Part shown: in pieces, positions 44,854 to 59,623 of the stretch
Layout: the number at the start of each line of letters is the position of its first letter
Position numbering within the stretch: position 1 is the first letter of the stretch
Origin: Gammaproteobacteria bacterium
Lineage (GTDB): Bacteria > Pseudomonadota > Gammaproteobacteria > Enterobacterales > Alteromonadaceae
DNA length: 64,000 nucleotides
Direction of reading: 5' to 3'
NCBI GenBank assembly: GCA_018826295.1
Contig: JAHJZX010000040.1
Span: 79,688 to 143,687 of the forward strand
Program-made: the position numbers and the translations under genes
Notes under the pieces: generated by a model
Told to the model about the DNA's origin: nothing
Database searches by the model: none
What the model saw: only the letters and a program-made list of their open reading frames with translations

Positions 44854-45714
44854 ATGATCCACAGCATGACCGCCTTCGCCCGTCACGAAACCAAAGCCAG
44901 CTGGGGCACTGCCCAGTGGGAGATCCGCTCGGTAAACCAACGTTACCTGGAGTCCTACTTTCGCCTGCCCGAGCAGTTTCGCGGTTTAGAAAGCCTGCTG
45001 CGCGACAAACTGCGTAACAACCTGCAGCGCGGCAAAATAGAAGTAAACCTGCGCTACCATGCTAACCAGGCCGCCGGTGAACTAACGTTAAACGAAGTAT
45101 TCGCCGAGCAATTACTCCAAAAAGCCCAGCAGTTACTGCAAAAAGCGCCGCAAGCGCAGTTAAACATTGCCGACATCCTGCGCTGGCCGGGCGTAATGGA
45201 AACACCAACTGAAGATTTAGACGCCCTGCAAGCTGAACTGCTGGCCGGTTTCGATGCCGCCCTGCAAGACTTCCTTGCCGGCCGTGGCCGCGAAGGCGAA
45301 GCCATTGAAGGCATGATCCAACAGCGTTTAACTGCCATCAGCGAACAAGTCGCCTTTGTGCGCAGCCACCTGCCACAAGCCATGCAATGGCAGCGCGACC
45401 GTATTGTTAACCGCTTAAATGAGATTAAAGCCGATTTAGACCAGAGCCGTCTGGAACAAGAAATGGCGTTTTTAGCCTCAAAATCCGACGTCGCCGAAGA
45501 GCTCGACCGCCTCGATGCCCACATTAAAGAAACCCGCCACACGCTGAAAAAAGGCGGCGCCTGCGGCCGACGGCTCGATTTTATGATGCAGGAATTTAAC
45601 CGCGAAGCGAACACCTTGTCTTCCAAAGCCATCAGCACCGAGATCACCAATGCCGCAGTAGAGCTTAAGGTGTTAATCGAACAGATGCGCGAGCAGATCC
45701 AAAACGTGGAATAA
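44854..45714 (+). CDS. yicC: YicC/YloC family endoribonuclease
   Basis: SMTAFAR, EIRSVNQRYL, GRRLDFMMQEFNREANT, EQIQNVE. Confidence 0.97.
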   Translation: MIHSMTAFARHETKASWGTAQWEIRSVNQRYLESYFRLPEQFRGLESLLRDKLRNNLQRGKIEVNLRYHANQAAGELTLNEVFAEQLLQKAQQLLQKAPQAQLNIADILRWPGVMETPTEDLDALQAELLAGFDAALQDFLAGRGREGEAIEGMIQQRLTAISEQVAFVRSHLPQAMQWQRDRIVNRLNEIKADLDQSRLEQEMAFLASKSDVAEELDRLDAHIKETRHTLKKGGACGRRLDFMMQEFNREANTLSSKAISTEITNAAVELKVLIEQMREQIQNVE

Positions 45715-45848
45715 CACAAGCCATCGCCAATCAAGCAGCAGATTCAATAAGCAGTCTGCTGCATTGATATTACATACCTGGTACTTCTGCCCCCAGCAGC
45801 GGTTTTCACCAAACACCCCATTTCTACCAACTGCGCCAAATGCCGGCT
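45692..45848 (+). repeat. 157-bp direct repeat copy 1 (last 23 nt of yicC + terminator + Fic 3' end)
   Basis: 154/157 identical to 48986-49142. Confidence 0.95.
45735..45762. terminator. Hairpin between convergent yicC and Fic genes
   Basis: GCAGCAGA...TCTGCTGC stem; duplicated within repeat copy 2. Confidence 0.6.
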
Positions 45849-46877
45849 AGCTGTCGCCGGGCTGACCTTAGCAACTTTGCCGTACTGGCTATTACTGATG
45901 CCTTCGCTGAAGTCGCCATAGAGCAGCCGGTTTAGTACTTTGACTTGCTCTTTGCTCAGTTGCGTTTGGTCTAGCCGTTGCCAAAATCGCGTTTTTTGCA
46001 GCGTTTGATCGATATCAGCCAGCGCCTGCTTTAGGCTAGCGGCTAGCGTGTCTAGAAACCAAACCAACCAAGCAGTGATATCGGTATCGCCTTTTTGGCT
46101 TTGCTCAAGAATGTCGTAGTAGCTGCTTCGCCTTTCCAGAATAGCAACCGACATGGCGTAAAAGCGGATCGACTGGTGTTCGGCCTGCGCCAGTGCCAGA
46201 TCGGTCAGCAGCCTGGCCAAACGACCATTGCCATCTTCCAGTGAATGAATAGTGATAAACCAGAAATGGGCAATGCCAGCGCGCAACAGTGGATCTAAAT
46301 TAGTGTCATCCCGCGAGCGGTTAAACCAGTCTATAAAGCAATTAAGCTCGCCTTCCAAAACTTCACGCGGTGGTGCTTCGAAATGCACTTTAGGCCGGTC
46401 TATTTTGCCTGACACAACCTGCATCGGCTCGTTACCGCGAAGGTGCCCGCCCTGCACCTTTTGCAGCAATGAACTGTCGGTCGGAAATAGCCAGGAGTGC
46501 CACTGTAATAATCGTTCCAGTGTTAATGGCTGTTGCCAATTACCGATAGCATCGGTCACCATCGCAGCAAGGCCATCAGACTGGGCTGTCGCTGCAACGC
46601 TTTGCAGTTCAGCAATACCCAGCTTACGCGCTAATGAAGAACGTACCACGCTATGGTTAAGTTGCTCTCCCTCAATGGCGCTAGAGGTAAGAATATTGGC
46701 AAGCATGGTATCCAGTGCAGCCTGCTGGTTGTTTTGCACACCCATTTTACCCAGCAGTATGCCCTGCAAAAAGTGCAGCTCACGCAACTTAGGCATCAAT
46801 GCCATATGATCAAAACGAAAGACTTGTGGTGCATCATGCTGACGGCCGGGCCAATCGGGTTGTTGCCAGATCCACAT
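45744..46877 (-). CDS. Fic family protein (DUF4172-like N-terminus, Fic domain, C-terminal HTH)
   Basis: MWIWQQPDWP start after AGGAG; Fic motif variant HSLEDGNGRLAR; TASRHL..L...G HTH. Confidence 0.9.
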   Translation of the reverse strand: MWIWQQPDWPGRQHDAPQVFRFDHMALMPKLRELHFLQGILLGKMGVQNNQQAALDTMLANILTSSAIEGEQLNHSVVRSSLARKLGIAELQSVAATAQSDGLAAMVTDAIGNWQQPLTLERLLQWHSWLFPTDSSLLQKVQGGHLRGNEPMQVVSGKIDRPKVHFEAPPREVLEGELNCFIDWFNRSRDDTNLDPLLRAGIAHFWFITIHSLEDGNGRLARLLTDLALAQAEHQSIRFYAMSVAILERRSSYYDILEQSQKGDTDITAWLVWFLDTLAASLKQALADIDQTLQKTRFWQRLDQTQLSKEQVKVLNRLLYGDFSEGISNSQYGKVAKVSPATASRHLAQLVEMGCLVKTAAGGRSTRYVISMQQTAY

Positions 46878-46896
46878 AGGCAAGGCTCCTGCTGAT

Positions 46897-46941
46897 TGAG
46901 GTGAATACATGATACAATTCACTCACATAGTGAGGTGAATA
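46897..46941. promoter_or_regulatory. Paired TGAGGTGAATA direct repeats upstream of Fic (candidate operator)
   Basis: Copies start at 46897 and 46931; same 34-nt spacing recurs at 49166/49200. Confidence 0.5.
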
Positions 46942-47140
46942 ATAAAACTAATCATCTCAAGAGACTGCAATTCAGATGTTTGTAGCCGTCTTAACAATCC
47001 TGTACGGCTATTATTACTGGCGATAAATCGCTTAAAACGAGGTGCAAACTCCTCGGTTTGCATTTTCAAATGGTAAGCCTTGGCAAGTTGATGTAAATAG
47101 CGCGATGCTTGATTTCACCCACGGTCTCAATCACGCAATA

Positions 47141-48076
47141 TCAGCCGATATGCTGCTTTGTTAGCAATTGAACAATTTTGAGGGCATCAGACCACGCGAC
47201 AGGTTGAGGGTGATAAACCAAAGGCCCGATAAATCGTTTATAGCGTTCAGCATATTTGGGTTCTTCTAACCGGGCCAGGCCAAATAATAGTTCCTTGCAA
47301 GGATCAGCTTTAAACTCTGGGTGTTGTTCGCCAAATTGAGTCACGTCAGTCTCGATCACTGCATCGATTAATTGCTTAAATTCTGCTTTATTCGCTAACT
47401 CAGTTTTAATCTGATAGAGATCGTAAGCATGGCGAATTAACTGATCGTCATCCTGCCGCTCTGAATAGCGGGTTGCAACTGCCGTTCGGCGTAGCAGCGA
47501 AACCAGTTTCTCTGCAGCGGTGGAGACAAGAGAAACACAAGCAAACCGCTCAACTTCTGGCACCTTATTTGTGACATCAGCATACAACGAACTGACCGGA
47601 TGGTAAGTGGCAGGCTGTAGTAGCTCAGACTCGGTCAGTTCTAATTGAATATGCGTCCGTAGTGCGTCACTGGAAGGGAATGCATTAGGATAATTTAGCA
47701 GTAATTGTAAAAACCGACGTTCATTTCGAACAACTGGATCCTGGCTCTGAGTAAAAAGCCCACTATCAAGTATTTGATTCGTGATATTGAGGTGGATGCG
47801 TTTTCTCAGTGTGCGTTGCGCAGAATTGCTTAACAGCTTTGTCGCAGCGTCAGGCACCAACTTTAAGTCTATGTCCTCAGACATCCGGTGTGTTTGTTTA
47901 TACACCTTAGCCAAACAGGTACCACCAGCGAATACTAGCTGATATCCCTCTGTGTCGGTGGTGCTGAGCAGGCGGAGCAGTTGTATCAGGAAGTAATCTT
48001 TTTCGACGATAGCCGGATCGGTAATATCAAGAGCATCTGCAACCTCGGCAAACATTACTGGTTCAGGCAGCATCAT
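47141..48076 (-). CDS. AbiEii/AbiGii-family nucleotidyltransferase toxin (pair 1)
   Basis: VEKD, FAGGTCL, RMSEDIDL, EKLVSLLRR; ATGA overlap with upstream gene. Confidence 0.88.
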   Translation of the reverse strand: MMLPEPVMFAEVADALDITDPAIVEKDYFLIQLLRLLSTTDTEGYQLVFAGGTCLAKVYKQTHRMSEDIDLKLVPDAATKLLSNSAQRTLRKRIHLNITNQILDSGLFTQSQDPVVRNERRFLQLLLNYPNAFPSSDALRTHIQLELTESELLQPATYHPVSSLYADVTNKVPEVERFACVSLVSTAAEKLVSLLRRTAVATRYSERQDDDQLIRHAYDLYQIKTELANKAEFKQLIDAVIETDVTQFGEQHPEFKADPCKELLFGLARLEEPKYAERYKRFIGPLVYHPQPVAWSDALKIVQLLTKQHIG

Positions 48077-48489
48077 GAACGCTGCTCGACCTGAAGCTGC
48101 ATATTGCGTAGTGATATTTTGCGATTAAAACGGCTTTTTACAATAACTTTGGCATTCACAGGAACCTGAGTGGTTTCACCTTTGTTATAACGAACCAGTT
48201 CATCTGATGGCTGCCAGGCAACACCTAACCGCTCAAGTGCTTGTTCAGATACCGCCTTAAAGCCACCTGTAGATGCCAGCATAGGCTTCCCCGTGATGCT
48301 GCTGATCCGGGCTTTAGCATATAAACCATAACCAATTTTCAGTAGCTTGCCCTCAGCCACTAACTCTCGAAGTGCCCGCCCTACCTGATCATAGCCACCC
48401 AATTGTTCAAAATCAGCGCGCAGAAAAACATCTTGCTTGGTGCGACTAATTTGCTGCTCAACCTGTTGCTTTAAACTTATCTTTGGCAC
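48073..48489 (-). CDS. AbiEi/DUF6088-like wHTH antitoxin (pair 1)
   Basis: FLRADF..LGGYDQVGRALRELV.EGKL.KIGYGLY; GTG start after GGAGG. Confidence 0.82.
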   Translation of the reverse strand: MPKISLKQQVEQQISRTKQDVFLRADFEQLGGYDQVGRALRELVAEGKLLKIGYGLYAKARISSITGKPMLASTGGFKAVSEQALERLGVAWQPSDELVRYNKGETTQVPVNAKVIVKSRFNRKISLRNMQLQVEQRS

Positions 48490-48521
48490 AAGACACCTCC
48501 GGTATTACGCTGCATCAGCTT

Positions 48522-48559
48522 AGCAAAAATACGACAAACACCCAAGCAAAAATACGACA
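48522..48559. promoter_or_regulatory. 15-bp direct repeat AGCAAAAATACGACA x2 upstream of antitoxin 1
   Basis: Perfect copies at 48522 and 48545. Confidence 0.5.
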
Positions 48560-48666
48560 CTTTACTCGGCACTCTGTAAACGATGCCCTTTGCACATAGT
48601 CAGCACCGCAATTTATAGAATAAAATCAAGCGTCAAAACAGAAAAAGTATCAGCCAGAGCGTTAAG

Positions 48667-48843
48667 ATGAAAGAAAACCCACTTGCAAAATATGGTGTTA
48701 CCAAACCTGTTCATCGGCCAAGGATCAAGCCAGTTAAGAAGCTCGATTTGGATACACCTGAGGGGAAGCTAATCGTTCTGAGCGAAGCAAAACGAATTAT
48801 GCAGATACATGAAAGCACCTTTAAACGTTTAGCATACCTGTAG
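48667..48843 (+). CDS. 58-aa Phd-like antitoxin without adjacent toxin (absent from ORF track)
   Basis: MKENPLAKYGVTKPVHRPRIKPVKKLDLDTPEGKLIVLSEAKRIMQIHESTFKRLAYL; resembles recalled Vibrio superintegron Phd (YGV..V.RPKIK..KKLDL...G..IV.SE.K..H..TF.KLA). Confidence 0.6.
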   Translation: MKENPLAKYGVTKPVHRPRIKPVKKLDLDTPEGKLIVLSEAKRIMQIHESTFKRLAYL

Positions 48844-48985
48844 TAGCAATAGATGTTTCTTTTATTTGAACGACAACTCAAGCACGCGAAAAATGGTGGG
48901 TAAAATGGCGGGTAAAAACGCAAAACAACCAACAAACAAAAACCTATATACCTGATTTAAATTAGAAATAATTTTTAAATCCACA

Positions 48986-49142
48986 AGCAGATCCAAAACG
49001 TGGAATAACACAAGCCATCGCCAATCAAGCAGCGGACTCAATAAGGAGTCTGCTGCATTGATATTACATACCTGGTACTTCTGCCCCCAGCAGCGGTTTT
49101 CACCAAACACCCCATTTCTACCAACTGCGCCAAATGCCGGCT
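48986..49142 (+). repeat. 157-bp direct repeat copy 2 (att-like duplication of yicC 3' end)
   Basis: 154/157 identical to 45692-45848; TGG(T/C)GGGTAAAA x2 lies about 70-90 bp upstream (around 48895-48918). Confidence 0.95.
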
Positions 49143-49163
49143 GGCGTTAGCCGAGCTTACCTG
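49038..49163 (-). pseudogene. Internally deleted Fic gene remnant (last ~41 codons fused to its upstream operator region)
   Basis: Encodes VSSANASRHLAQLVEMGCLVKTAAGGRSTRYVISMQQTPY*; directly followed by a diverged copy of the Fic upstream region. Confidence 0.85.
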
Positions 49164-49281
49164 GTTGAGGTGAATACGTTAGCTAATCTGCTCATTCAGT
49201 GAGGCGAATAGCAAGGCTAATCTGTACTAGCTCAGACCTCATTAAACGCACTCAGAAATTCTAAGTATCGTTCGACAGGCT

Positions 49282-50172
49282 TCACATCCCCATATCAAAC
49301 CTGGTTTTGGGCGAACCATTACTAAGTAACTCCGTGGCCATAGCACTGACCTCGGCCTGCACATAAGCCCAATACTCTGGGTTATCCACGGTACGTTCCT
49401 TGATCTGACTTGGGATAAAACGGCTCATCTCCATATTAAAATCAGCCCTTACTTCATCATCTTGTTGCAGCTTCTTGATCTGCAGCTCGAGCGCTGTTCT
49501 AAAGTCGTCTTTGTGTTTATTTCTTGCCGCTAATTTTTTTTCTACCAGTTCTTTTGATAGCGCTACGCCACGTTGTTTGATCCAGACGATATCCCAGATA
49601 TCACGCGGTTTAATTCTTCTTGCCCGATAAGCGACAGCGATAAACTTATCTGATAGCGTTTCCTGCAATGATTGCACCGGTACCAAGATCCCTTCTGTGG
49701 GTACCACGATGTTGTAATGGTTTAACAGGGGCCTTTTTTCAATGTCGAATGACGGAATGGCACAGACATCAATATGCATTTTTTGCCGGGGCAAGTCCGG
49801 ACGGTTCGCTTCTTTTACGATACTGATTTTCCAGGAGACAGTATCACCCTGATTGTCTGCTGCAGGTTTGTTTACCCAAACCTCAGTTTCATATTTGTTC
49901 TGGATATAGTTTTGAATGTCAGCTTCTAAACCATCGAAATCTGTCGGCTTAAAATTATGGCCACCGTTAAAATCGAGATCCTCTGATAAGCGGGCACTGT
50001 TGTAACACATACGCAAGGAAGTCCCGCCAATAAAGGTCAGGCTTTGCATCGCACCTTGCTTAATCAATACCGCCATAATGTCGTGGTGCAGGATCTCCTT
50101 CTCAATAACAGGGGTAATAGCGGCATAGTCTGGATTCGCTTGCACAATTTGACGAAGCTGTTGTTTTAACAT
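49282..50172 (-). CDS. AbiEii-family nucleotidyltransferase toxin (pair 2)
   Basis: EKEILH, FIGGTSLR.CY...RLSEDLDF, DKFIA, RDIWD. Confidence 0.9.
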   Translation of the reverse strand: MLKQQLRQIVQANPDYAAITPVIEKEILHHDIMAVLIKQGAMQSLTFIGGTSLRMCYNSARLSEDLDFNGGHNFKPTDFDGLEADIQNYIQNKYETEVWVNKPAADNQGDTVSWKISIVKEANRPDLPRQKMHIDVCAIPSFDIEKRPLLNHYNIVVPTEGILVPVQSLQETLSDKFIAVAYRARRIKPRDIWDIVWIKQRGVALSKELVEKKLAARNKHKDDFRTALELQIKKLQQDDEVRADFNMEMSRFIPSQIKERTVDNPEYWAYVQAEVSAMATELLSNGSPKTRFDMGM

Positions 50173-50185
50173 CCTGATCCCCTCT

Positions 50186-50713
50186 CTATTTATGCTCCAG
50201 CATATGCAGATTTCGCTGACAGTATTTCAGGTCGGTCAGCGCCTGTTCGGTATTGGCGCGATACATTTTAATGTCAGGGTCAAAATACAGATTATTGACA
50301 AGCTGCTCAACAGGCCTTTTGGTGTGGGTGAACTCAATCACGCCATAAGGCGTGGTAAAGGTGCCTGTTCTGCCTTTTGTCACCACGGTAACCCTGTCCA
50401 TTATCACTTGCGAAATCTCACCAGTATGGCTTAGCTGGCTTTCCAGACTGATATAACTCAGTTCATCGCTACGTAATTTTTTGATGATTTTATAAATTGC
50501 TGTTTCAGGCTCTGGCGGCGTTAGTACACTTTCGTATAACCCTTGGGCCACTCTCCTGAGCTGACCTTTTTTAACCCGGTCGGCCAGAAATTTCGTAAAG
50601 GCGGGTGTGTATGGCTCACCTAACATAAAAGCCAGCTCTGCAGCGCTATGAATGCCGCCGCCAGCCTTTACCGCATTGGCAAAAACCAGCAATAATTTGT
50701 CAGATTTTGACAT
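50186..50713 (-). CDS. AbiEi-family antitoxin (pair 2)
   Basis: wHTH ...LRRVAQGLY, SYISLESQLS..G.ISQ; start moved to MSKSD. Confidence 0.85.
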   Translation of the reverse strand: MSKSDKLLLVFANAVKAGGGIHSAAELAFMLGEPYTPAFTKFLADRVKKGQLRRVAQGLYESVLTPPEPETAIYKIIKKLRSDELSYISLESQLSHTGEISQVIMDRVTVVTKGRTGTFTTPYGVIEFTHTKRPVEQLVNNLYFDPDIKMYRANTEQALTDLKYCQRNLHMLEHK

Positions 50714-50921
50714 AAGGCACACAAATAACAACATTAATGGTTAGAAAGTGTAGACCTAAGCAGAAAAGTCTTCAACCTAACAATGTACAAAAAAGCACTA
50801 AAAAGGTAATAAAATGCGCACACGATAGTCAGTCCAACTCAGATAACGTGGGCAACAATCAACTAAATAGCCCTACTATTTGCCTGCAAGTACAGGGCTT
50901 TTCCTAATACAACTCAGCAAT

Positions 50922-51042
50922 TAATCACCACTATCGGTTATTTATTTAAGAAACCTTTCATTAACTGCATATATTCACCGTTATTAGTGATTATATTTGA
51001 AATTTCTCAGTACCTCTCTATAATCACCAAATGTGGTGATTA
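50922..51042. promoter_or_regulatory. Three palindromic operator-like sites upstream of hipB
   Basis: TAATCACC-N6-GGTGATTA (perfect at 51021-51042; degenerate at 50922 and 50972). Confidence 0.7.
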
Positions 51043-51065
51043 ATAGCTAAAGCAGAGCCAATATC

Positions 51066-51356
51066 ATGGCAAAAAAGGTAACGGTTTCAGATATGCCTGA
51101 TTCAGTATTTATCGATAACGCCGGAATACTGGGACAACTGATTAAAGCGAAGCGCACAGAACTCGGTATTAAATTGGCCGACTGTGCCGCACTGTGTGGC
51201 ATTGGCATTAACACCTTGTCACGTATTGAAAACGGCAACGCCAATTGCACTTTAGCCGCAGTATTCTCTGTGTTAAACGGCTTGGGCATTAAACTGACAT
51301 CGAAAGAGCTGACGTTAGCAGCGAGTACTTCCTCAGCAGGAAGGAAGTGGATTTGA
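51066..51356 (+). CDS. hipB: HipB-like XRE HTH antitoxin
   Basis: IKAKRTELGIKLADCAALCGIGINTLSRIENG; TGATG overlap with the hipA-like gene. Confidence 0.85.
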   Translation: MAKKVTVSDMPDSVFIDNAGILGQLIKAKRTELGIKLADCAALCGIGINTLSRIENGNANCTLAAVFSVLNGLGIKLTSKELTLAASTSSAGRKWI

Positions 51357-52693
51357 TGATGGCGAAAATCGACGCATACCAACTGAAAGTAACTTATGGT
51401 GATGATGTCATCGGCACCTTGGCGTTGGATAACACAACCAATTTATTAAAACTTAGCTATACACCGCAGTGGCAACAACAGGGTTTTGCCATTTCACCAC
51501 ATTTGCCCCTTAACAATCAGCATACATCTGAAGTTGCCTACAACTATCTTGATAACGCCCTACCAGAAGGTGAAGCGCGAAAGCTGCTGGCTGAAAACTT
51601 AGGTGTTTCGGAAAAAAACGTCTATTCGCAAGTGCGTGCTATTGGTAGTGATTTAGCGGGTGCCTTCGTATTTAGGCCCGTTGAAGAGGAGCATGTAGAT
51701 GAGACGCAACCCAGCTTTAGGCTACTTGAAGAAGCTGAGTTAATTGAAAGACTCAACATTAAAGAAGAGTTTGGCTTGCTGACATGGGATGACAAGCCCC
51801 GGCTCAGTGTGGCTGGCGTGCAGGACAAACTAAATGTCTTTATGGATAACGCCGGCAACCTTGGTTTTGGCGACGGCGCACTGTGCTCTACCCATATCCT
51901 GAAATTCGAAAAGAAAAACTGCCCAAACCTGGTACTAAACGAGTTCTTCTGCATGAAACTTTCAACTGCGGTTGGCTTACCCACAGCCGAGGTGGCGTTT
52001 AGGCGGTTCGGTCCTCATCCGGCGCTTATCGTTAAGCGCTTTGATCGCAAATACATGAGGGACAATAACAGAGTATTGAGACGCCACGTAATAGATGGCT
52101 GCCAAGCGCTTAACTTATCGAGAGATCATAAATATGAGCGTAACCTTGGCGATAGCAGAGACGTGAAGCATATCCGTGATGGCGCCAGTTTAGAGAAGCT
52201 ATTTGGGTTTTGTCGGAAGATGTCTTCGCCGGTAGAGAGCATACAATGGCTGATCCACTGGCAGTTGTTCAATTTAATGATCGGCAATTATGACAGTCAC
52301 GGCAAAAACGTGTCGCTGTATTTCGACGACAGCACTGCCCGCTTTACCCCAGCCTATGATTTAGTTAACGTTTCGATGTTCCCACAATTCAGGCATGTGT
52401 TAGCAATGGCGATGGGCGATGAATTTGAACCTGACTCCATACACGCCTATCAGCTGGCAGATTTTGCAGAAGCTTGTAAGATCGACAAAAAGCTATTGTC
52501 GAGACTATTAGTTGGCTTAGCAGATAAAGTGCTAAACCAGCTTTCGGATGAATTACTTATCAAAAAGCTGAAAGATGAGCCCGGCATTACTGCTGACGAC
52601 ATTCAGTATTGTCAGCTATTAGGTGACAACATAGTAGCAAGAACAACCCACTTAAAAGCGCAAGCAGCCGAGATCCCATTTATCCGGTTATAG
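51356..52693 (+). CDS. hipA: HipA-family kinase toxin with N-terminal Couple_hipA domain
   Basis: DNALPEG, SVAGVQDK, NEFFCM, RFDR, GNYDSHGKN, PAYDL. Confidence 0.92.
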   Translation: MMAKIDAYQLKVTYGDDVIGTLALDNTTNLLKLSYTPQWQQQGFAISPHLPLNNQHTSEVAYNYLDNALPEGEARKLLAENLGVSEKNVYSQVRAIGSDLAGAFVFRPVEEEHVDETQPSFRLLEEAELIERLNIKEEFGLLTWDDKPRLSVAGVQDKLNVFMDNAGNLGFGDGALCSTHILKFEKKNCPNLVLNEFFCMKLSTAVGLPTAEVAFRRFGPHPALIVKRFDRKYMRDNNRVLRRHVIDGCQALNLSRDHKYERNLGDSRDVKHIRDGASLEKLFGFCRKMSSPVESIQWLIHWQLFNLMIGNYDSHGKNVSLYFDDSTARFTPAYDLVNVSMFPQFRHVLAMAMGDEFEPDSIHAYQLADFAEACKIDKKLLSRLLVGLADKVLNQLSDELLIKKLKDEPGITADDIQYCQLLGDNIVARTTHLKAQAAEIPFIRL

Positions 52694-55192: not shown

Positions 55193-56326
55193 TTACGCTA
55201 TAAAACGCTCTTGATATAGCTTTCTGTGATATTGCAGATACTTAATATTTGGCTCACGCACGGCAAGGCGCATCTGTTGTGAAATACCCAATACTTGTGG
55301 CCGTTCCAGTTGCGTAGAAATAATAATCTGGCCATTATCCTCAAATGAGATAAAACCGCGGTCGAACGCTTTGTCTAAATTGGCCAGTAACAATAAACCA
55401 TTGTTAGGATCTAACCGTTCAGAATTGCTCGATGAACGCCAGGGTTTAATGTGTGACGCCACCAACATGGCAGGCATCATATAGCCTGTTACTGCACAAC
55501 CGTCCCACTGCTCAAACAACCGCTGTCTGAACTGCCCTTGCCCCACCCTTGCACTAACCAACATCGACTTCTCAGTCGTGGTTAAATCATCACTTTGCAA
55601 AATGTCATCAACATCAGTAGTAACGTCCACTTGACCAAGCTCAGCCAGAAACTCGCCGTATGACTTTAACGCGCTGCTGTACATTCTCTTTCCGCGCGTA
55701 TCCTTCTCGCGAAACTCATTAAGCTCATAAAGCGGTGTGGTAACCCGTTTGTATTCATGGAAAGAGCCAATTTGCGTCAGGTCACTATCCGTGATTTGTT
55801 CTCTCTTTGCCAGATCCGATAACACCCCCTGCACAGCGCCTAAATAACTTTTTGCTGTTCTATCTGATTTGCCAAGCCCCAATACCCAGCGAACATATAA
55901 TTCGGGTAAACGCGTCAGGTTTTGCGTCAGTGCTAAACGTAAGTCCGCGCGTACCAAGCTGCTTTTCATTAGTTCAAACAACTCAGTATCCAAATAGGCG
56001 TAGGCAATTTTTCGTTTACTAAAACCGGTGATGTCGCCCAACTCCACGCCAACTACCGGCTGAATGTGCCAAAAGCCCTCGGATATCAGGTGGTAAAACG
56101 GGTTGTCCGGTGTATCCTGATCATTGCCAGCACGCAGACGCTGAAAGTGAAGGGTAAAGCTTTGCTTTAACGCATCATTAAATTCGATCCGGTTTTCGCC
56201 AATTACACCCAGCTCAATCAAATCCATCACAGCTAACAACATGCACACCTTGTGTGGCTTGTTGTGCCCTTGCAGCCGCATGGTGTTTAAACCACGGAAC
56301 TTGTTTAGATAAAACTGAAGCGACAT
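55193..56326 (-). CDS. HNH endonuclease with SBD-like N-terminal domain (putative type IV, phosphorothioate-dependent) and a central extra domain
   Basis: PHKVCMLLAVMDL...PFYHLISEGFW; C-terminal ASHIKPW...NGLLL...D..FD.G HNH_2 pattern. Confidence 0.8.
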   Translation of the reverse strand: MSLQFYLNKFRGLNTMRLQGHNKPHKVCMLLAVMDLIELGVIGENRIEFNDALKQSFTLHFQRLRAGNDQDTPDNPFYHLISEGFWHIQPVVGVELGDITGFSKRKIAYAYLDTELFELMKSSLVRADLRLALTQNLTRLPELYVRWVLGLGKSDRTAKSYLGAVQGVLSDLAKREQITDSDLTQIGSFHEYKRVTTPLYELNEFREKDTRGKRMYSSALKSYGEFLAELGQVDVTTDVDDILQSDDLTTTEKSMLVSARVGQGQFRQRLFEQWDGCAVTGYMMPAMLVASHIKPWRSSSNSERLDPNNGLLLLANLDKAFDRGFISFEDNGQIIISTQLERPQVLGISQQMRLAVREPNIKYLQYHRKLYQERFIA

Positions 56327-56572: not shown

Positions 56573-56728
56573 ATGACACAAACTAAAGCACCAATGACAC
56601 CAGAAGCCGCTGCTCGTATTCAAAGCGCTCAAGCAAAGCAAAACGGCGGCTCAGTAGAGAAAGGAAGTTTTACCGCCAGAGCTCAGAGTAGTGCGGCAAA
56701 AAACACATCAACTACAGGAAAAAAATAA
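56573..56728 (+). CDS. 51-aa hydrophilic small protein (absent from ORF track)
   Basis: AGGAG RBS; MTQTKAPMTPEAAARIQSAQAKQNGGSVEKGSFTARAQSSAAKNTSTTGKK. Confidence 0.75.
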   Translation: MTQTKAPMTPEAAARIQSAQAKQNGGSVEKGSFTARAQSSAAKNTSTTGKK

Positions 56729-56729
56729 T

Positions 56730-56855
56730 ATGCCAAAGCACGATGACGACAACCGCAGCCGCCAGCTTGACCCTGAGCACGACGCTTATTGGCAAAGCCG
56801 TGGGGAAGATGAACGCCCTGATGATTGGCAAGATCGTCTTGAGGATGAGCAATAA
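56730..56855 (+). CDS. 41-aa acidic small protein (absent from ORF track)
   Basis: Starts 1 nt after the previous stop, AGGA upstream; MPKHDDDNRSRQLDPEHDAYWQSRGEDERPDDWQDRLEDEQ. Confidence 0.7.
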   Translation: MPKHDDDNRSRQLDPEHDAYWQSRGEDERPDDWQDRLEDEQ

Positions 56856-56895: not shown

Positions 56896-56921
56896 AATAG
56901 CCGGTAATTCTGCCGGCTATT
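56896..56921. terminator. Bidirectional hairpin terminator
   Basis: AATAGCCGG-N8-CCGGCTATT between convergent genes. Confidence 0.7.
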
Positions 56922-58305
56922 TCTTCAAATTTAATAACAAATGATGTTGATAGTAGGCGTCATAATGGCCAATCACATCTGAGAACACCTTAATTGCTGG
57001 CGCAGCGTTTTTCAGCTCCTTTGCTGCAGCAAGCTGCTGTGCCCAGTTTTTTCTCTTTTTATCTAAGCCAATAGCCATCTTGGACATCAAACTTAACTGC
57101 TCAGCGCTGCCAGGACAAATCTTCTCAGCCAAACTTGCCCAAAACTGCTCCAAAAGTTCACGACTGGGCACCTCTTTGCCTTTTCGCCATGCTTTTAAGG
57201 TGTTGTAACATCGATCAGCCTCTGTCTCTGCAGACGAATGTGATACATCATTGTTTAGGGGAATATATCTGGCCATTTCACGAACAGATAATTGAACGAC
57301 GTTCTTCGATATTACATCGTGTACTTCATCCAAAAACTCGCCGAAACAGGTTGTTGTTTTTGCTTCCTCATCATTTTTTTGCGAAAACCGGGTAAGCGCC
57401 CTACACAACAACCCTTTCTTACGCGTTAAATCAGATTGATCAGCTCGATAAGTTAGTACACAACCCACTTCATAGCTGGCCATCAGCTGCAGATAGAAAT
57501 CAAGATATACAAAACAATGCGCCCTAAGAAATGCAGTTATAGCCTCGTCACCAACCAAGTTGCCAGATGCATGCAAAACAAAACCCTGCTCATAGGCCTG
57601 CAATTCATCGTGAGGTACTAAAGAGTGCTTTTGCCAGTGTGGCAACATCAGTTTCACTATGGCGACAGAGTCATTTTTCGTCACTTCGCCGCTTTTGATA
57701 AGTTCGTTTATTTGACGACGCATTAAAATATCAGCATCACATCGCTGCAGTATAAAATCCATTTGAGGTTGATATTCAGATGCAAACTCAGACTGCTGAT
57801 AGGCCTTACTACAACGCATGCCACCAATAAAAGACCACCAATGTCCTGCACTGGAGAGCTCGCGGGATCCGCGCTCGAGCAATTCACGGGAAAACGCATC
57901 GCATCGGGAAGAAAAGTCAGCGAATGAAGGCCGAAGCCAATCTATAAATTTTTTTGCGGTGGGATAACCCACACCACCGTTAAACATCTCAAACCTGCTG
58001 CTTCGACCAATTGGCATTGGGCGTCCAAAACCATTTTCCAGAATGTCGAACATCTGCTTGATTGGGATGCCGAGTATGTAATCTATACTTTTTTCAATTG
58101 AAGGTAAGAAAAAGCCCTCGTTACCGAAATGGTTAAGACGGAACTTCGATTTTTCTTTACGCATGCCCTCTGAACTCGATTCAAGATCAGCGAATAAGTC
58201 CATAACTCCCGATGGATCTGCAGTGATAACTGCGCAGTCGCCAGCATCGCTATTGCCCGTTAGTTCATGTGCATGCTGTAAATTAGTTTTAGATTCTTTA
58301 TTCAA
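56917..58305 (-). CDS. Hypothetical protein with possible HTH-like segments (start uncertain)
   Basis: 462-codon ORF in an AT-rich island; YNTLKAWRKGKEVPSRELL resembles an XRE recognition helix. Confidence 0.7.
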   Translation of the reverse strand: MNKESKTNLQHAHELTGNSDAGDCAVITADPSGVMDLFADLESSSEGMRKEKSKFRLNHFGNEGFFLPSIEKSIDYILGIPIKQMFDILENGFGRPMPIGRSSRFEMFNGGVGYPTAKKFIDWLRPSFADFSSRCDAFSRELLERGSRELSSAGHWWSFIGGMRCSKAYQQSEFASEYQPQMDFILQRCDADILMRRQINELIKSGEVTKNDSVAIVKLMLPHWQKHSLVPHDELQAYEQGFVLHASGNLVGDEAITAFLRAHCFVYLDFYLQLMASYEVGCVLTYRADQSDLTRKKGLLCRALTRFSQKNDEEAKTTTCFGEFLDEVHDVISKNVVQLSVREMARYIPLNNDVSHSSAETEADRCYNTLKAWRKGKEVPSRELLEQFWASLAEKICPGSAEQLSLMSKMAIGLDKKRKNWAQQLAAAKELKNAAPAIKVFSDVIGHYDAYYQHHLLLNLKK

Positions 58306-58351
58306 TGCCAGCTTTCCTTGCCCGACTTTTCAAACATGAAAAATATTGATG

Positions 58352-59248
58352 TTAAAGCCCGACTTCACGCTCATCTACTTCCACCTTCCGCACTACCGCT
58401 TCGCGCTCCAGGATAAACAATTGGTTAATCAGCAGGAACTCGCGAATGGCATCTGCTGGGGTGGTTTCATTTTCTTTGTGGGCGCGGCTATTACGGTAAG
58501 CCATGTAAACTGCGCTAAATAGCGAGGCCCTGCCATTAGCTTCGGCTTGTGGAAGGTCAGGCCAATAAAGCGGCGCGTCTTTAGCCTGGAATGCTTGAGA
58601 AAATAACTTAGCGCCATTTTCGCCATCCAGTCCCGTTCTTTTGCGAATAGTATCTTCCAGGCGTTTGTAGCAGGTCATCAGGTTTGCATCTAAGTTGTAC
58701 TTCAAATCTATCGCTTGCTCCATAATGCGGTTATCAACGATGTAGTAAGGTATTTCTTTGGCAAACAGGCTTTTTACCAACGTATCGTCGTAAAGGCGGT
58801 GGTCATCTCTTAGTAAAATAAAATCGTAGTAGCGAATTGGATGCACCGGGAACTGAGCTTTGAGCGTGTCTAAGTCTGCTTGGGTCAGGCAGGAACTATC
58901 AACTCTTTCAATAAGGCTTTTATCAACGGCATATTCTTCAATAGCGATATTGTGGCGAATTAGAATTTGCAGCGCACTGGATAGCCCGTGCGGCCCCTCA
59001 CCACCATAACCAGATGCAAAGCCAGATTTTATCGCGATAGGGTCGCCAAATTCGGCGAACAACAAAAAGCAGTGGGTACCGCAGCCAGATTTGCTATCGA
59101 AATCGGAGAGTAAGTAGGCTTTTTCAAATTTATCGCCGGCCTGAATCGCCATGGTTAGCGCCCGTAAGCAGCGAGCAGTAATGCCAGCAGTGCCGTAATA
59201 CTCAATACCGGCTAAGTCTTTTATTTTCAACTTTTGGTCTATAAACAT
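58352..59248 (-). CDS. TIGR02391/Ymh family protein with HEPN-type RxxxxH motif
   Basis: LE..IRKRTGL..G.KL...AF, C-terminal YRNSRAH; N-terminal IAIKSGFASGYGGEGPHG domain; start moved to MFIDQ. Confidence 0.75.
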   Translation of the reverse strand: MFIDQKLKIKDLAGIEYYGTAGITARCLRALTMAIQAGDKFEKAYLLSDFDSKSGCGTHCFLLFAEFGDPIAIKSGFASGYGGEGPHGLSSALQILIRHNIAIEEYAVDKSLIERVDSSCLTQADLDTLKAQFPVHPIRYYDFILLRDDHRLYDDTLVKSLFAKEIPYYIVDNRIMEQAIDLKYNLDANLMTCYKRLEDTIRKRTGLDGENGAKLFSQAFQAKDAPLYWPDLPQAEANGRASLFSAVYMAYRNSRAHKENETTPADAIREFLLINQLFILEREAVVRKVEVDEREVGL

Positions 59249-59308
59249 ATTTATCAACTCACAGAAACTGATGCTCCGACAATGCTGCGTCGTTTTAAGG
59301 TGTTAAAT

Positions 59309-59623
59309 CTAAACGCGGCAGTAAATTAGCCATCCAAGGTTCTGCACTTTAGTACCTTGTTGCACCAGCCGTGCGTCTGTTTTTAACTGACCTAAACGCA
59401 GTAAGTCTGCAGCCGGTTCAACCGCAATAACCTGACAACCCTGCTGCGCCAGCCACAACGCATCACGGCCGCTACCAGCACCAATATCCAGCACAAGTTG
59501 TTGTTGCCCACTCTGTGGCCAATAGGCACTCCAACAGGCATGCACCTGCTCAAAGCTCAGTGCATCGTATTGGGTAGCAAATAATTCAGCGCCCTGATGG
59601 TAAATATCAACGGTTTTGCTCAT
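59309..59623 (-). pseudogene. 3'-truncated class I SAM methyltransferase
   Basis: VLDIGAGSGRDALWLAQQG, VIAVEPA motifs present; ORF ends after 104 aa, before the later MTase motifs. Confidence 0.75.

Follow-up and report, generated by a model that had tools for sequence, protein, structure and literature searches.

Adjacent genes for a Ymh/HEPN protein and a rare all-helical protein in a yicC-associated island are probably independent cargo of restriction-linked defence arrays

Two neighbouring genes in a 64,000-nucleotide stretch of DNA from an Alteromonadaceae bacterium (GenBank assembly GCA_018826295.1, contig JAHJZX010000040.1, positions 79,688 to 143,687), the whole of which is called the window here, raise the question of whether they act together as one defence system or merely share a location. 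Gene 1 encodes a protein with a predicted HEPN ribonuclease (RNase) domain of the Ymh family, and gene 2 a protein of no recognisable family. The original prediction joined the two as a new two-gene system, with gene 1 as the RNase effector and gene 2 as its sensor or regulator. The open reading frames (ORFs) are on the minus strand as placed there, co-oriented and 46 bp apart:

58352-59248, minus strand: gene 1, ATG start, 298 amino acids (aa), ORF; an alternative upstream TTG at 59257 gives 301 aa.
56917-58305, minus strand: gene 2, TTG start with AAGGA upstream, 462 aa, ORF; member of an unnamed all-helical family.
58306-58351, minus strand: spacer between gene 1 and gene 2, 46 bp, with an AAGGA Shine-Dalgarno sequence ahead of the TTG of gene 2.

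The length of gene 2 is that of its close homologues, and a pattern scan of the spacer found no terminator-like hairpin. In our view gene 1 and gene 2 are probably separate cargo modules, independent of each other, that belong to restriction-linked defence arrays carried by mobile islands. Their adjacency is best explained by a shared habitat and not by a shared function, because arrays of one restriction-linked kind take up both genes.

The distribution of gene 1 was followed by a protein search, which gave at least 285 clusters of relatives, and by a genomic scan with one genome per species, in which 80 of 119 loci were kept. The 80 loci come from Proteobacteria, Acidobacteriota, Verrucomicrobiota, Chloroflexota, Patescibacteria, Planctomycetota and Cyanobacteria, and from one Thermoplasmata metagenome-assembled genome (MAG). 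A gene-2 homologue was found in none of them, and neither were the two micro-genes that adjoin gene 2 in the window. Same-genus relatives with 70-83% identity to gene 1 are included here (L010, 83%; L011, 72%; L012, 70%), and other genes come after these, McrBC in the case of L011 and L012. Clustering of the three genes on either side of the relatives in the 80 loci gave no conserved partner family. The largest neighbour families were HsdS, HsdR, an AAA_21 ATPase (PtuA-like) and HsdM, with superfamily 1 (SF1) helicase-nucleases, Fic, McrBC and PIN proteins as further ones; a type I restriction-modification (R-M) subunit is encoded within three genes of the relative in at least 15 of the 80 loci, and labelled defence-type families are found near it in 22. 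Within the Shewanella/Rheinheimera clade, the genes found most regularly upstream form a PtuA/PtuB-like (Septu) pair. The lack of gene 2 in all 80 loci together with these varied neighbours suggests that gene 1 is a stand-alone module of restriction-linked arrays, a setting which for Ymh proteins is already known in outline. A triad of PtuA-like ATPase, PtuB-like protein and Ymh protein was also seen in L004, L011, L012, L013, L095 and L096; it is absent from the window and may represent a Septu variant with a HEPN accessory gene.

The same question was approached from the side of gene 2, where upstream neighbours were counted over 15 loci including that of the window, L115 ending upstream of gene 2. 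Ymh is the upstream gene in four of the 15 (window, L004, L095 and L096), and in L004, L095 and L096 it is itself preceded by hsdMS and a PtuAB-like pair. Elsewhere the upstream gene is McrC (L091), PDC-M26B (L094), HsdS immediately upstream (L118 and L119), a GmrSD fragment after a DarTG pair (L001), the gene for the Tiamat protein TmtA with a 4-bp overlap (L097), or a tandem gene-2 paralogue with an 11-bp overlap (L007: 3-596 and 586-1791, with micro-genes and hsdR following). A protein of a further group, family X, is encoded directly upstream of gene 2 in L098 and, after a DarTG pair, in L090; in L093 the order is family X, a 294-aa protein and then gene 2. Upstream hsdM/hsdS genes are present in at least nine loci. 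The Ymh-linked loci fall in two separate clades of a maximum-likelihood tree of gene 2, in which L004, with Ymh, is sister to L093, without it, and the near-identical trio L001, L090 and L098 have different upstream arrays. The two genes have also diverged discordantly, being 75% (gene 1) and 37% (gene 2) identical between the window and L004. The change of neighbour between sister loci, the discordant divergence and the counts of 0/80 and 4/15 leave a sensor or regulator role of gene 2 for gene 1 without comparative support.

A dedicated two-gene system of a HEPN RNase effector (gene 1) and a sensor or regulator (gene 2), at least in Rheinheimera/Shewanella, would fit the adjacency, the common orientation and the short gap with no terminator. 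It would also fit L095 and L096, where order and spacing are unchanged, and the recurrence of the pair in L004, where gene 2 is only 37% identical, and one more MAG contig (14,882 bp; P0003, P0021) probably carries both genes. However, 11 of the 15 gene-2 loci are without Ymh, the sister locus L093 has other genes in its place, none of the 80 gene-1 loci has gene 2, and the N-terminal domain of gene 1 already gives that protein a sensor-plus-effector architecture, so that together with the discordant divergence we regard such a system as quite improbable. The two genes for the most part do not co-occur elsewhere, and neither the two-gene system nor gene 2 as the sensor or regulator partner of gene 1 is supported by the comparison.

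What gene 1 may do by itself depends on its domains, which are placed as follows:

58829-59227, minus strand: N-terminal alpha/beta domain of gene 1, residues 8-140 (alignments and AlphaFold2 model).
58418-58693, minus strand: Hypoth_Ymh (PF09509)/HEPN domain of gene 1 (Pfam; same coordinates in the scan of its own genome).
58478-58495, minus strand: RNSRAH, the HEPN Rx4H motif (translation).

Homologues of gene 1 are 273-317 aa long and can be aligned from the ATG. The match to PF09509 covers residues 189-280 of the 301-aa ORF (E 2e-13, 50.7 bits, cut-off 25), and that to NCBIfam TIGR02391 scores 36.9 bits, below the cut-off of 39.45; close homologues are labelled 'TIGR02391 family protein' by NCBI. 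Residues R252, N253, R255 and H257 are invariant in 27 diverse homologues, and the AlphaFold2 model (mean predicted local distance difference test, pLDDT, 87.6) has C-terminal helices at 186-205, 212-220, 234-257 and 264-283. The Ymh family has been classed as HEPN, with the remarks 'in operon with R-M' and 'Solos and fusions' (Anantharaman et al. 2013, PMC3710099), and the fusions given are those with paraMORC, AbiJ-NTD1/2 and AbiTii (PMC3710099). Searches of PADLOC-DB v2.0.0 gave partial weak matches only (Aga_HEPN, 7e-5; PD-Lambda-3_B, 5e-3), and PHROGs gave none. The description of gene 1 as an unrecognised N-terminal domain joined to a TIGR02391-like domain with RNSRAH is thus upheld, and as had been expected neither gene matches a named system in PADLOC. 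The setting is a defence island.

The N-terminal domain has the order alpha-beta3-alpha-beta-alpha in the model. Its alignments contain the motif IKSGFxSGYGGEGP and the invariant residues C27, H59 and E105, and the peptide IAIKSGFASGYGGEGPHG is its most conserved stretch. The sole significant Foldseek match of the gene 1 model was to 1wn9 (TT1805, 127 residues; E 3e-4, TM(target) 0.75, 130 columns). We take this entry, a Thermus thermophilus protein, to be DUF3197, and its topology fits that of the N-terminal domain. Weak Pfam matches to DUF6166 (7 of 18 members) and DUF3197 (2 of 18) were obtained with N-terminal domains of the gene-1 family. HMMER searches of PDB sequences with the single domain sequence and with a profile gave no match, and a literature search found no mention of DUF6166, DUF3197 or TT1805. 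Among 71 database matches to the domain, 68 carry PF09509 and the other three are shorter (226-260 aa) and have no Pfam call. The domain is thus found almost only together with Ymh, which suggests that sensor and effector are already present in a single protein. In the model C27 is located at the first turn of a helix and H59 in the subsequent sheet, an arrangement that might fit a dyad like that of thiol enzymes.

Within the known class of restriction-linked Ymh/HEPN proteins, gene 1 represents a new variant with a fixed architecture. It is a reasonable candidate for a single-gene abortive-infection protein, with a predicted RNase activity and a putative function in defence. We propose that this protein, which belongs to the Ymh branch of the HEPN superfamily, works on its own as a single polypeptide, in a mode modelled on proposals for the restriction-linked HEPN proteins PrrC/RloC and for the Ymh fusions. 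The N-terminal domain, with its DUF3197/DUF6166-like character and GFxSGYxGEGP loop, would sense an infection cue or keep the enzyme inactive. The HEPN domain would probably dimerise and so bring two RNxRAH motifs together, after which cleavage of RNA by the predicted HEPN domain may stop growth and lead to abortive infection.

Gene 2 is a different kind of protein. No match was found in Pfam, NCBIfam, PADLOC or PHROGs, in agreement with the earlier remark that a protein of up to 462 aa has no recognisable family, and library scans of 70 relatives gave no family either. The AlphaFold2 model is all-helical, with 19 helices (pLDDT 84.7, predicted template-modelling score 0.84) and disorder limited to the first 35 residues. 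Foldseek returned no analogue from PDB (best E 0.49) or from BFVD (best E 0.25) and HMMER nothing meaningful among PDB sequences, and on the model gene 2 is apparently a rare protein with a new fold. A word-based search gave 19 clusters of homologues and a profile search 148 clusters at 50% identity, nearly all of 400-470 aa and matching end to end. Named members belong to Shewanella, Ferrimonas, Pseudoalteromonas, Photobacterium and Marinobacter, all labelled 'hypothetical protein', and the family is limited to marine Gammaproteobacteria. With the profile there was no hit among 399 other scored class-level genomes, and at order level 2 of 400 other species genomes were hit; a single partial locus came out of a metagenome search with the gene-2 alignment. 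Because of this rarity, the counts of co-occurrence draw on 15 loci. A viral origin of the pair was considered and rejected; gene 2 was not found in IMG/VR viral contigs and neither gene matches PHROGs. A distant homologue with 24% identity was observed at 6938-8185 of L134, a 33-kb Photobacterium plasmid (NZ_CP099737.1), directly after a cluster of type II restriction endonuclease, Dcm methylase and Vsr and without micro-genes.

Across the wide family only P68, R188, F270 and W373 of gene 2 are invariant, and the only conserved polar residues are R188 and D269. With so few invariant residues gene 2 does not look like an enzyme. Two segments that had been read as helix-turn-helix (HTH)-like are among the best conserved (GVGYPTAKK...W and LSxRxLA...W-R-x-G-x-x-x-P-S), and by eye the pattern W-x-x-G-x-x-x-P-S-x-x-x-L-x-x-F resembles XRE helices. 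HTH families, however, gave no match in 70 members at E <= 0.01 or in the isolated segments from five homologues at E <= 10, and comparison by hhalign with the XRE-type HipB of the window was non-significant (probability 0.5%), so that the HTH reading is weakened. Weak similarity to the Pfam Death domain was noted at residues ~337-385 (two fragments, E 0.08-0.12) and in one of the 70 family members (3.9e-4), and is not relied on; the XRE-like look falls in the same segment, and neither is established.

If gene 1 is not the regular companion of gene 2, the question becomes which gene is. Two small genes and a hairpin are placed beside gene 2 in the window:

56573-56728, plus strand: basic, SMP-like micro-gene of 51 aa, first of the micro-operon (ribosome-binding site, ORF).
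56730-56855, plus strand: acidic micro-gene of 41 aa (MPKHDDDNRSRQLDPEHDAYWQSRGEDERPDDW...), convergent to gene 2.
56896-56921, no strand assigned: hairpin between the convergent gene 2 and micro-gene operon, with a 9-bp stem and an 8-nt loop.

The 51-aa gene is present in 15 of 15 gene-2 loci and the 41-aa gene in 14, always adjacent and convergent. The 51-aa protein matches Pfam SMP at E 8e-5. The 41-aa protein, with the motif DNRSRQL(D/N)P..DAYWQSRG, keeps 72-98% identity between loci, including those in which gene 2 has fallen to about 28%. Synonymous divergence (pS) is 0.34-0.83 for the 51-aa gene and 0.37-0.90 for the 41-aa gene, as against nonsynonymous divergence (pN) of 0.04-0.20 and 0.03-0.11. 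Saturated synonymous sites (pS 0.7-0.9) with low pN indicate that the micro-genes are real and strongly constrained by purifying selection. What stays with gene 2 is this unannotated micro-gene pair and not the HEPN gene. The link is one-sided, since the 51-aa gene is often found without gene 2: a homologue is present in 13 of 300 other order-level genomes, 11 of the 13 without gene 2, and some such copies lie between hsdR and hsdM. Proteins of ~120 aa that flank micro-gene homologues elsewhere showed no homology to gene 2.

The hairpin had been taken as a terminator shared by gene 1 and gene 2. It does exist, overlapping the gene 2 stop codon with a fold of -14.9 kcal/mol (z -1.65, modest), but it has its T-rich tail on the plus strand only and no U-tract on the strand of gene 1 and gene 2, and it resembles rather a terminator that serves the convergent micro-gene operon.

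Gene 2 probably belongs to a separate rare module. It is a fast-evolving, non-enzyme-looking helical protein, always kept beside the micro-gene operon, and it closes arrays headed by hsdMS, McrBC, Septu, DarTG or others. Its role would be one of binding or regulation, as a sensor or controller involving the microproteins and not as a partner of the HEPN protein. It is tempting to go further and regard gene 2 and the two microproteins as an undescribed three-gene module with a new fold, either an anti-phage system or a controller of restriction-linked arrays, which has stayed intact through repeated exchange of cargo, and the DUF3197-like and Ymh fusion as a phylum-spanning single-gene abortive-infection RNase; this fuller account is speculative, and we hold it to be possible but on the doubtful side.

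The turnover upstream of gene 2 may also be read as an exchange of effectors, with gene 2 and the microproteins as a generic terminal component and Ymh/HEPN and family X as swappable upstream effectors of nuclease type. Modular defence systems typically exchange the effector while its position stays fixed. Ymh (four loci) or family X (L090 and L098, and one gene apart in L093) precedes gene 2 in 7 of the 15 loci, and the overlaps of 4-11 bp between gene 2 and the upstream gene in L097 and L007 are in line with such coupling. In the other loci, however, what precedes gene 2 is the final gene of a known system present in full (HsdS, McrC, TmtA or PDC-M26B) and not a solo effector, and both proposed effectors occur without gene 2, Ymh in 80 of 80 loci and the nuclease half of family X in genomes G498 and G743, which makes this exchange unlikely. 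Family X itself (L090, 5084-5908; L093, 4011-5006; L098, 5917-6921; 274-334 aa) has no match in Pfam or PADLOC, and its C-terminal segment KPEVDSKGYDLI...IQLKS resembles a PD-(D/E)xK nuclease core.

The setting of the two genes bears on whether gene 2 is defence cargo at all. Two further features mark the island and its edge towards gene 1:

44854-45714, plus strand: yicC (YicC-like N and C domains in Pfam); the left border of the island lies at the 3' end of this gene.
59309-59623, minus strand: truncated S-adenosylmethionine-dependent (SAM) methyltransferase remnant, a 104-aa ORF directly upstream of gene 1.

The island is AT-rich, as had been stated, with 44-45% GC over 48-60 kb compared to 50-55% in the flanks. 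After yicC it contains, in order, Fic, two AbiE pairs, HipBA, membrane proteins, a methyltransferase, an HNH_2 nuclease, the micro-genes, gene 2, gene 1 and the truncated methyltransferase, which covers the N-terminal part only of the Methyltransf_25/11 profiles and is replaced by PtuAB or hsdMS genes in gene-1 relatives. Mobilizable genomic islands such as MGIVflInd1 and MGIVmi1 integrate at the 3' end of yicC (PMC4344509, PMC8409611), and several Shewanella gene-2 islands have a tyrosine integrase adjoining yicC. No integrase was found among the scanned island ORFs of the window, and no recombination directionality factor (RDF) or origin of transfer (oriT) was identified in its island, which is probably an integrase-less remnant at the yicC attachment site.

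In the same-genus genome G753:C9 (L124), yicC is followed by DNA matching window positions 50866-51567 (the hipB region and the start of hipA) and also has the last 48 bp of hipA, and is otherwise unlike the window stretch 44854-52693; Fic, the AbiE modules, gene 1 and gene 2 are absent after yicC. The yicC site is a variable hotspot. The HNH_2 protein of the window (55193-56326, minus strand, 377 aa) adjoins the micro-gene region and matches NF045808, a model of restriction endonucleases for phosphorothioated DNA, below threshold (55.7 bits, cut-off 180). Shewanella baltica L001 has an HNH_2 gene in the same place after the micro-genes.

Such a setting could mean that gene 2 and the micro-genes are a non-defence backbone of the island or of the R-M locus, which might for example regulate R-M expression when a new host is entered, or maintain or transfer the island, with gene 1 as ordinary defence cargo. 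The block of gene 2 and micro-genes is constant while the upstream cargo turns over, Shewanella islands lie by an integrase at the known yicC site, gene 2 has no catalytic-looking conserved residues, and it is linked to type I R-M, type II R-M and McrBC loci alike. On the other hand, gene-2 loci are also found away from yicC, with other integrase types or none (L095, L096, L004 and L093), so that gene 2 need not be a core component of yicC islands; its fast evolution suits an arms-race protein better, and no HTH or other DNA-binding family was detected in it. We consider a backbone of this kind rather unlikely.

Several points weigh against independent cargo modules as we describe them. Ymh stands beside gene 2 in two clades of the gene-2 tree, which is more than expected for unrelated genes, and the spacing of 46-47 bp with no terminator between the genes is kept in the window, L095 and L096. 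The constancy of the micro-genes beside gene 2 could reflect a cold spot for rearrangement and not a shared function, and the role suggested for gene 2 has its basis solely in conservation patterns. As to gene 1, Foldseek with the full-length model gave no significant HEPN structure, and the region under the 1wn9 match was placed partly by the topology of that fold, together with the weak DUF3197 matches.

Restriction-linked HEPN genes are a known class which is experimentally almost untouched, and gene 1 defines within it an architecture that is fixed and widespread, shared by bacteria from many phyla and by one archaeal MAG. The conserved N-terminal domain, with invariant Cys, His and Glu and no known function, makes gene 1 a clean single-gene target for work on phage defence. 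A function of gene 2 in defence, or in controlling restriction systems, would be a new one if it exists. The locus also illustrates that 'two-gene systems' guessed from neighbours in defence arrays can mislead.

Compared with known systems, the window island resembles MGIVflInd1 and MGIVmi1 in that it begins right after yicC, and gene-2 islands share with them type I R-M and toxin-antitoxin cargo and, in Shewanella, an integrase beside yicC. The window differs from them in that no integrase, RDF or oriT was identified in its island, and gene 2 also occurs on a plasmid and at other chromosomal sites. HEPN-MNT pairs are a poor comparison, as no nucleotidyltransferase match was found in gene 2 or in other neighbours of gene 1, and the AbiEii genes of the window are more than 8 kb from gene 1. 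TT1805 (1wn9) and DUF6166 proteins are like the N-terminal domain of gene 1 in structure and by weak family matches, but are stand-alone proteins of no known function, unlike the gene 1 fusion. PD-Lambda-3 reportedly comes from the work of Vassallo et al. in 2022. The Ymh domain of gene 1 matches PD-Lambda-3_B weakly (E 5e-3, residues 195-267), which reflects a shared domain only; there is no equivalent of PD-Lambda-3_A here, and gene 2 has no match.

Closer parallels are found among HEPN proteins with accessory domains. Like AbiD, AbiF, AbiJ, AbiU2 and AbiV, gene 1 combines an N-terminal accessory domain and a C-terminal HEPN domain in a single chain and lies in a defence island, but its HEPN domain is of the Ymh family, its N-terminal domain is another one, and it has no Abi match in PADLOC. 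It belongs to Ymh (PF09509/TIGR02391) in scoring above the Pfam cut-off and having the Rx4-6H motif, and members of that family are known from R-M operons (PMC3710099). Its N-terminal domain (GFxSGYxGEGP) is not among the fusions in PMC3710099 and has no Pfam model above threshold, and unlike the R-M-linked members, gene 1 of the window has no adjoining R-M gene. The anticodon nucleases PrrC/RloC are similar in that a predicted HEPN RNase lies inside type I R-M loci, as for the gene-1 family members near type I subunits described above. Gene 1 differs from them in having a 130-aa alpha/beta domain in place of the N-terminal ABC/SMC-type ATPase domain, and in the window it is not cis-linked to hsd, the two hsdS genes of the genome being on other contigs. 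By analogy with PrrC/RloC, gene 1 likely follows the same logic and would form a second line of defence behind restriction.

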